Virus record (IMG/VR): IMGVR_UViG_3300031993_000044
Coordinates: 22,990-86,989 of that record
Direction: 5' to 3' (one strand)
Origin: a virus
Lineage: Duplodnaviria > Caudoviricetes
DNA: 64,000 bases
Under the pieces are notes generated by a model, which saw only the letters and a program-made list of their open reading frames with translations, made no database searches and was not told the DNA's origin. Position numbers and translations under genes: made by a program. Position 1 is the stretch's first letter, and each line of letters begins with the position of its first letter. This document shows, one piece after another, positions 29,393 to 29,570 of this stretch.

Positions 29393-29432
29393 AAAAAAGC
29401 CCCCGCGTCAGTACGACAAACACGCAGGGGCT
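29393..29432 (-). terminator. Intrinsic terminator (minus strand)
   Basis: AGCCCCUGCGU / ACGCGGGGGCU stem, 13 nt loop, then U6. The U.G wobble on the minus strand would be a C.A mismatch on the plus strand. Confidence 0.75.
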
Positions 29433-29495
29433 ACGACATTTCAGTTTAACTTTGCGTAAAACTGTACGAGCAAGGCACAGAAATACAACAATGTC
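29393..29495 (-). ncRNA. Candidate small RNA antisense to early-gene leader motifs
   Basis: Minus-strand TACCTTTGC at 29499-29507; minus-strand terminator at 29393-29432; no ORF on that strand; contains reverse complements of CAGTACGACAAAC, CAGTTTAACTTT and TACAACAATG. Confidence 0.55.
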
Positions 29496-29498
29496 GGT

Positions 29499-29570
29499 GC
29501 AAAGGTATGAAATTTTGGTGGTAAACCGATACAACTTCGACAAAAAATGAGTAATTTTGCGAAAAATTTG
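29499..29570. promoter_or_regulatory. Back-to-back -7 boxes
   Basis: GCAAAGGTA (minus, 29499-29507) and TAATTTTGC (plus, about 29553-29561) upstream of the hydrolase cassette. Confidence 0.6.

Follow-up and report, generated by a model that had tools for sequence, protein, structure and literature searches.

The CI RNA of satellite phage P4 is an immunity factor made of RNA, for which the early leader transcripts of the phage itself contain repeated complementary boxes (seqA/seqC) as recognition sites; it is cut from a leader transcript, acts by premature transcription termination, and has two boxes in one operon as its targets. In phage T4, the protein RegA is a translational repressor of the start regions of many early mRNAs, which are thereby shut off together. 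The c4 antisense RNA of phages P1/P7 is processed from a transcript that carries its own target, and acts on one operon, icd-ant (Citron and Schuster 1990, summarised in PMC12197685). Independently transcribed phage sRNAs that base pair with phage and/or host mRNAs include VpdS of VP882 and STnc6030 of BTP1, the latter conferring superinfection exclusion against related phages (PMC12197685). No Bacteroidota phage regulatory RNA is covered in that review, which dates from 2025.

The locus described here was analysed as part of a 64,000-nucleotide stretch of DNA (the window) corresponding to positions 22990-86989 of an IMG/VR virus record that is 86,989 bp long and has terminal repeats. The phage was placed among the Bacteroidales phages because the promoters in the window were of the Bacteroidota TAnnTTTG type, its ADP-ribosylhydrolase (ARH) gene (29605-30369) showed weak similarity to Bacteroides and Porphyromonas phage genes, and its closest relatives originated from ruminant-gut metagenomes. 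It was taken to be temperate because it encodes an integrase and an S24-peptidase repressor:

44412-45578, minus strand: tyrosine integrase, Bacteroidota-type (domains Arm-DNA-bind_5, SAM_5 and integrase)
45844-46467, minus strand: S24-peptidase repressor (LexA/CI-like)

Genes were arranged in strand blocks, small early, replication and modification genes being located in the plus blocks (14296-31187, and from 46983 onwards), and structural, packaging, deazaguanine and lysogeny genes in the minus blocks. Among the relatives, the large terminase was 839 aa long with Hint/intein-type matches in one phage (L026:16206-18725), where it probably contains an intein, and 530 aa in another (L025:16458-18050). 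In the window, an intergenic gap at 29390-29604 was flanked by a gene for a 101-aa protein without known family and by ARH. Judging from sequence, the minus-strand element in this gap probably represents a real, new sRNA family, and antisense control of an early leader and start-site regulon appears to be its best mechanism, at a probability of roughly 0.55. The element and its surroundings comprise the following features:

29507-29500 (C at 29499), minus strand: Bacteroidota-type -7 promoter box, TACCTTTG(C)
29393-29494, minus strand: predicted small RNA (about 102 nt), extending from a predicted start near A29494 through the U tail
29479-29494, minus strand: 5' seed ACAUUGUUGUAUUUCU, complementary to (A/G)GAGAUACGACAAUG
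29462-29480, minus strand: stem-loop 1 (SL1), with a 6-bp stem and an invariant GCUUGCUC loop region
29433-29453, minus strand: unpaired linker seed AAAGUUAAACUGAAAUGUCGU, with 20 nt invariant in all lineages
29398-29432, minus strand: terminator hairpin with a 10-11 bp stem and a 15-nt loop (29408-29422), invariant core UGUUUGUCGUAC
29393-29398, minus strand: U6 tail of the terminator (A6 run on the plus strand)
29552-29559, plus strand: -7 box TAATTTTG of the divergent ARH operon, a neighbour outside the small RNA

In plus-strand numbering, the 5' and 3' arms of the terminator occupied 29399-29407 and 29423-29431, respectively, with A29398-T29432 as the closing pair. A sequence-only reading of this DNA had proposed a minus-strand -7 box and a U-tailed hairpin, and both were found where it had placed them. 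Its observation that no minus-strand gene explains the terminator also held, the nearest such gene ending at 31203, beyond the plus-strand ARH operon, as did its argument that a U.G wobble and the U6 tail favour the minus strand, the stem position in question being a C.A on the plus strand. The minus-strand RNA folded better than its shuffles (z = -3.9), whereas the plus-strand RNA of the gap did not (z = -0.4). The -7 box, for which two lineages have TATCTTTG, was followed by CA in all lineages, and no clear -33 element was seen upstream of it. The sequence-only reading had described the interval as free of ORFs; a 107-aa minus-strand ORF (29307-29630) does span the element, but was considered non-coding because stops break it in every relative. 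The 19-aa plus-strand peptide offered by the same reading as an alternative was discarded, a stop occurring after 5 codons in L007. At the sequence level, the locus has the arrangement of a generic trans-encoded sRNA, with its own promoter and an intrinsic terminator around a non-coding unit of 50-300 nt.

Relatives were collected from ENA, Logan and JGI contigs through homologues of both flanking proteins, and a search for exact copies of the invariant 20-mer brought in a further two IMG/VR genomes and two metagenome contigs. The element was present in six lineages overall (window/L006; L007/L026; L013/L025; L019/L031/L032/L034; L021/L024; L033), carried by phages of ~76-89 kb, and covariance model R1 found a single copy each in the window, G001 and G002. 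Exact-pattern scans with the loop and stem produced chance matches only, patterns incorporating the lineage-variable bases had no match in IMG/VR and JGI, and a pattern scan of genome contigs returned one chance Bacteroidales promoter look-alike and nothing else. No related locus was found by searching with the 101-aa neighbour protein, and BLAST of the small RNA against 401 sampled Bacteroidales genomes found no prophage copy among those searched. Rfam 15 gave 0 matches at gathering score across the whole window, and a permissive E-value on 29300-29650 gave chance-level matches only (12.9-16.9 bits versus gathering scores of 38-80); the C4 family was matched in neither scan. The element was always divergent from the ARH operon, even where a different gene lay on its other side. 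The ARH operon was itself convergent with the gene for a very large MuF-type head protein (window 29605-35024; L016/L026:11168-14287), which in L026 carries an ADP-ribosylating toxin domain (PF03496), and this ARH/toxin synteny was maintained in all lineages examined. ARH homologues of ~71% identity were located directly behind integrases in L020, L022 and L023, apparently in integrated bacterial elements; these copies were not accompanied by the small RNA, and the idea that it travels with ARH as such was rejected.

The same two-hairpin fold was obtained in all lineages by single-sequence folding, which recovered SL1 throughout, although the automatic alignment shifted its register in two lineages. 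Minimum free energies ranged from -32 to -34 kcal/mol in the minus sense and from -22 to -30 kcal/mol in the plus sense, the former being the more stable by 4-11 kcal/mol in all lineages. Between lineages, the terminator stem was 99-100% paired, with 2-3 pairs altered on both sides (double compensatory changes), while the arms of SL1 had changed from U-A to A-U, from U-A to C-G and from U-A to U.G, and retained an invariant G.U that is functional as a pair only on the minus strand. Wherever a stem position departed from Watson-Crick pairing, it was a G.U when read on the minus strand and a C.A on the plus strand. The covariation score was 0.27-0.32, compared with 0.18-0.22 in shuffles (0-1 of 500 reached it) and at most 0.13 for slid partners, the underlying counts being few and non-independent because the six lineages are close relatives.

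The stems varied, and the invariant blocks were the 5' end, the SL1 loop, the linker and the terminator-loop core. Two wobble-compatible transitions in the 5' end block, GACAUUGU(U/C)GU(A/G)U, constituted the sole variation in these four blocks; the conserved unpaired linker (20 nt) read AAGUUAAACUGAAAUGUCGU, and the conserved block of the terminator loop was 12 nt long. Mean unpaired probabilities were 0.72 for the linker, 0.76 for the terminator loop and 0.40 for the 5' end, with the 5' seed half sequestered in a weak lower stem. A plus-strand -7-like box (TAACTTTG at 29447) that overlaps the linker was examined as a possible cause of linker conservation and rejected, since it is broken in L013/L025 (TAACTTGT in L025) while the linker seed is intact there. 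Overall, the small RNA was 82-86% identical to its relatives, versus 50-56% for the adjoining 44-bp spacer and 60-64% for ARH third codon positions; a U-rich tail was present in all lineages (for example, UUCUUUUU in L007), and the -7 box and first transcribed bases were conserved beside the diverged spacer. Comparison of the six lineages supported the sequence-only reading of a minus-strand RNA gene, bounded by a conserved -7 box of its own and a U-tailed terminator, and showed stems that covary while the loop and the other seed segments remain invariant. The case for function follows from the seeds being the most conserved parts, where neighbouring neutral sequence has drifted apart to about 50-60% identity.

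Promoter-leader cassettes stand at the head of four plus-strand operons, near 14640, 21650, 26530 and 55840, with the order -7 box, ACGACAAACA, CAGTTTAAC and (A/G)GAGATACGACAATG, the third box also being written GATACGACAATG. The cassettes were near-identical (14581-14700, 21600-21713, 26490-26573 and 55790-55894), and each had an upstream TATAGTAATTATTAGGTTT box that may be an operator or activator site; GACCTTTG replaced the TAnnTTTG -7 box in two of the four. A small protein with a DUF559/Vsr-like endonuclease fold was encoded at 13909-14259 (minus strand), divergently from cassette P1. The plus strand of the small RNA gene was collinear with the four cassettes (alignment A5), from which it differed by two insertions that supply the terminator arm and SL1; neither the -7 box of the cassettes nor their upstream TTATTAGGTTT box was present. 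Because of this collinearity, the small RNA was interpreted as an inverted, diverged leader copy (an 'anti-leader'). A degenerate leader copy had been listed among the alternatives in the sequence-only reading, which appears correct as to origin, but the copy would be used on the opposite strand. An inverted and diverged copy of the four-operon promoter-leader cassette with two hairpins inserted would lead to an RNA presenting three conserved segments, namely the 5' end, the unpaired linker and the large terminator loop. Read antiparallel, these segments are complementary in the correct order to three leader boxes: GAUACGACAAUG, with the start codon in it, CAGUUUAAC and ACGACAAACA. The predicted targets and other complementary sites were:

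14659-14700, plus strand: leader of cassette P1, predicted three-site target (ACGACAAACA, CAGTTTAAC, GATACGACAATG); cofold -24.3 versus -7.4 kcal/mol shuffled
21668-21713, plus strand: leader of cassette P2, predicted three-site target; interaction energy -27.7 versus -6.3 kcal/mol for shuffles
26546-26573, plus strand: leader of cassette P3, two sites (CAGTTTAAC, AGAGATACGACAATG); -20.0 versus -7.0, with a 15-bp helix with the 5' seed
55856-55894, plus strand: leader of cassette P4, predicted target; -20.4 versus -7.6, with one shuffle reaching -22.0
58115-58155, plus strand: start region of a 400-aa gene; loop seed 12/12 at -11..0, linker seed 13/13 at +18..+30
29591-29600, plus strand: GACATTTCAG at -14..-5 of the divergent ARH gene; 10/10 to the linker seed

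Cofold interaction energies were -20 to -28 kcal/mol for the leaders, -6 to -8 kcal/mol for shuffled leaders and -1 to -7 kcal/mol for the sense-strand control. Energies from RNA.duplexfold were uninformative, since unlimited interior loops brought everything to ~-20 kcal/mol, and ungapped-helix scoring and cofold were used instead. The individual complementarities that had been reported earlier could all be reproduced: for the loop, 12/12 at 58115, 11/11 at 55102, and 10/10 at 15274, 22164, 47002, 52884 and 59331, together with ACGACAAACA at 14659, 21668 and 55856; for the linker, 13/13 at 21678-21690, together with CAGTTTAAC at 14670, 26546, 50426 and 55867; and for the 5' end, TACAACAATG at 28198-28207. 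In addition, TACAACAATG was found at 15656, and a second 13/13 linker match at 58143-58155. The 5' seed, whose target is the start codon plus 12 nt upstream in the first gene of each cassette, formed ungapped helices of 14-15 bp over the AUG of the P1, P2 and P3 first genes (14698, 21711 and 26571, respectively) and at 57385. The gene for the 400-aa protein (at 58126; without Pfam or PHROG family) was considered the best two-site internal candidate target because of its 12/12 loop-seed and 13-nt linker-seed matches, the second of which spans codons 6-10.

In the window, the loop motif CAGTACGACAA occurred 14 times with at most one mismatch (1.16 expected), 13 of these on the plus strand; the shorter TTCAGTTTAAC alone was not enriched (4 versus 1.5 expected). 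Of 74 plus-block genes, 18 had an ACGAC box no more than 14 nt from the ATG, compared with 0 of 47 minus-block genes. Helix scores of at least 24 were reached by 15 of the 74 plus-block start regions (~4 expected) and by 5.6% of background windows, with a mean of 1.6 (maximum 5) for shuffled small RNAs and 0 for the sense control; 6 of 47 minus-block start regions also scored high, through G.U-rich helices. In terms of a generic sRNA, the linker and loop are conserved seeds, predicted to be accessible and complementary to several start regions, with enrichment in the plus blocks. Many of the single seed matches were only 9-12 nt, some were located inside coding sequence and derived from conserved peptides (for example, K/Q-Y-D-I at 27223 and L026:8893), and some complementarity is to be expected even without function because the gene descends from a leader copy. 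The start context (C/A)AGTACGAC(A/T)ATG (for example, at 15114, 15283, 21329, 22175, 52896, 55112, 58126 and 59340) was confined to one gene class. A gene for a Phage_ProQ_C_like protein (PF24203, E 1.6e-9), which could be an RNA-binding partner, was located at 28205-28543 (plus strand), 1.2 kb upstream of the element, and also in relatives (L019:800-1156; L024:1-261); its start region has a 10/10 match to the 5' seed in the window and CAGTACGACGATG instead in L019, which is a loop-seed match.

Complementarity between the seeds and early-gene leader and start-codon motifs, suggested by the sequence-only reading for the window phage, extended to its relatives. The cassettes and the start-site motif were common to L025, L026, G001 and G002, with cassettes located at L025:1130-1206 and 6215-6288 and at L026:2070-2142 and 8335-8407. 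The motif TACGACWATG had forward/reverse counts of 6/0 in G001 and 5/0 in G002, with the small RNA on the reverse strand. The variant 5' seed of L025, CAUUGUCGUGUC, formed 12/12 and 13-bp pairings with that phage's own start regions, and the corresponding pairing in L026 was 12 bp. Both 5' seed substitutions between lineages (U/C and A/G) still pair with GAUACGACAAUG through wobble. One position hints at a possible compensatory change between small RNA and target, nt 13 being U with A at -9 in the window and G opposite C in G001; this case stands alone.

In the proposed mechanism, minus-strand 29393-29494 would give rise to a trans-acting RNA of ~102 nt from its own Bacteroidota -7 promoter (29500-29507), ending at the intrinsic terminator. 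Its 5' end and loop would match the start-site motif (C/A)AGUACGAC(A/U)AUG, which about a dozen internal genes carry on the cassette strand. The RNA would most likely act by occluding the start-codon region, resulting in coordinated translational repression of the gene class, probably accompanied by decay of the targeted mRNAs. In Bacteroidota, which lack Shine-Dalgarno (SD) sequences for initiation, A-3 and A-6 are positive determinants of initiation (PMC6847099), and the ACGACA box places A at -3 and -6. Initiation in the phylum also depends on a start region free of structure, and pairing over ACGACA should block it. A subset of genes keeps C/G at -5, -4 and -2 beyond the A-3/A-6 preference, which is unexplained unless these positions form an RNA or protein recognition site. 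We infer transcription, pairing in vivo and the sign of the effect from the sequence, and the RNA may act either in the lysogen (immunity, exclusion of related phages) or as an early-to-late switch; an immunity role is possible because the phage encodes an integrase and an S24 repressor. On a more tentative note, the inverted cassette copy could have become a small RNA dedicated to reading a 'barcode' at start sites (ACGACAAUG together with the leader boxes) that ~20 early genes have in common, which would amount to RNA-based, regulon-wide translational control in a phylum without SD-led initiation.

The small RNA could also be real with a local function, in the divergent ARH antidote operon or an ART-toxin/ARH pair, or a function on host mRNAs, its likeness to the leaders being a relic of duplication. 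Strict synteny with the ARH operon in all lineages, whatever gene lies on the other side, is consistent with such a role, and so is the 10/10 match of the linker seed to GACAUUUCAG at -14..-5 of ARH in the window, L012, L013/L025 and L021, which recurs with one G.U in L019. This site was kept in most lineages; it was degraded in L007/L026, yet all three seeds are invariant there. Complementarity to the multi-copy leader and start-site boxes is found in exactly those segments that show 100% conservation, seed variants remain wobble-compatible with the start-site motif, and a relic should decay at the neutral rate, as the 50-56% identical spacer has done. A local or host function is regarded as unlikely.

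Still less probable is the absence of any trans-acting RNA, the hairpin being a cis terminator or insulator at the end of the P3 operon and the remainder a decayed leader copy, whose boxes were kept because a phage regulator binds them as it does the real cassettes. The hairpin does sit 4 nt past the stop codon that ends the P3 operon's last gene, the plus strand shows collinearity with the cassettes, there are three ACGACA-like boxes, and TAnnTTTG-like -7 boxes are common by chance (about 21 expected per strand). A plus-strand hairpin would, however, contain C.A mismatches in both stems of each lineage and have no U tail, whereas the wobbles, without exception, and the U tail make sense on the minus strand only. 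SL1 has no cassette counterpart, yet its structure has been maintained through compensatory changes; conservation beside the diverged spacer extends to the minus-strand -7 box and first transcribed bases; and the cassette's own -7 and upstream boxes are the parts that are missing. Least probable of all is a protein sponge of the CsrB/RsmZ type titrating a phage or host RNA-binding protein through three exposed UGU(C/U)GUA repeats: three copies of a similar short motif are indeed present (in the 5' end, linker and loop), and a Phage_ProQ_C_like protein is encoded nearby and in relatives, but a sponge should carry the mRNA-sense motif and these repeats are its complement, within conserved blocks (20-nt linker, 12-nt loop) that are far longer than the repeat and collinear with the whole leader.

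How Bacteroidota regulate their genes after transcription is poorly understood, because initiation in the phylum is not SD-led and because it is not known to have Hfq. The mode of initiation is described in PMC6847099. Antisense control of the early regulon, if true, would provide a clean, testable case of one sRNA governing a whole temporal gene class via a common start-site signature, and would point to inverted duplication of a target leader as a route for the birth of sRNA genes. It would also explain the unusual ACGACAAUG start context, found on one gene class only in this phage group, and would make available a repressor/target pair, both portable and programmable, for use in Bacteroides and Prevotella genetics. 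If expressed from the prophage, the RNA would in addition confer sequence-specific immunity against all relatives with the same barcode.

Compared with known systems, the VpdS/STnc6030-type sRNAs all come from Proteobacteria with Hfq/ProQ (PMC12197685), and none of them is described as the antisense version of a leader cassette present in several copies or as targeting a common start-codon motif. The likeness to T4 RegA is a functional analogy only, as RegA is a protein and recognition by the element would consist of RNA-RNA pairing with the start-site motif. With c4, the element shares the general form of a small phage RNA in which loop-displayed segments are set against short complementary boxes over the ribosome-binding region, with more than one seed per RNA. 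Such loop-exposed segments are present in the sequence, the terminator loop (unpaired 0.76) having perfect 10-12 nt matches to -11..0 of gene starts and the 5' seed covering the AUG, and pairing is predicted from them. Furthermore, c4 is a trans-acting immunity element of a temperate phage; the window phage is also temperate, and its element may serve in immunity. Unlike c4, the element is not processed from a target-carrying transcript upstream of its target, but has its own promoter on the strand opposite all targets and kilobases from them; its three collinear seeds are predicted to act on four operon leaders and about a dozen internal start sites, in a host phylum without SD-led initiation. 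As in P4 CI RNA, seeds are predicted to face repeated boxes in the phage's own early transcripts, although the predicted target here is a genome-wide start-site motif and that of P4 CI consists of two boxes in one operon. Because it matches no family model, has its own opposite-strand promoter, and combines three collinear seeds with predicted targets across a gene class, the element was placed outside both the c4 and CI families, yet in function it would most closely resemble P1/P7 c4 RNA and P4 CI RNA.
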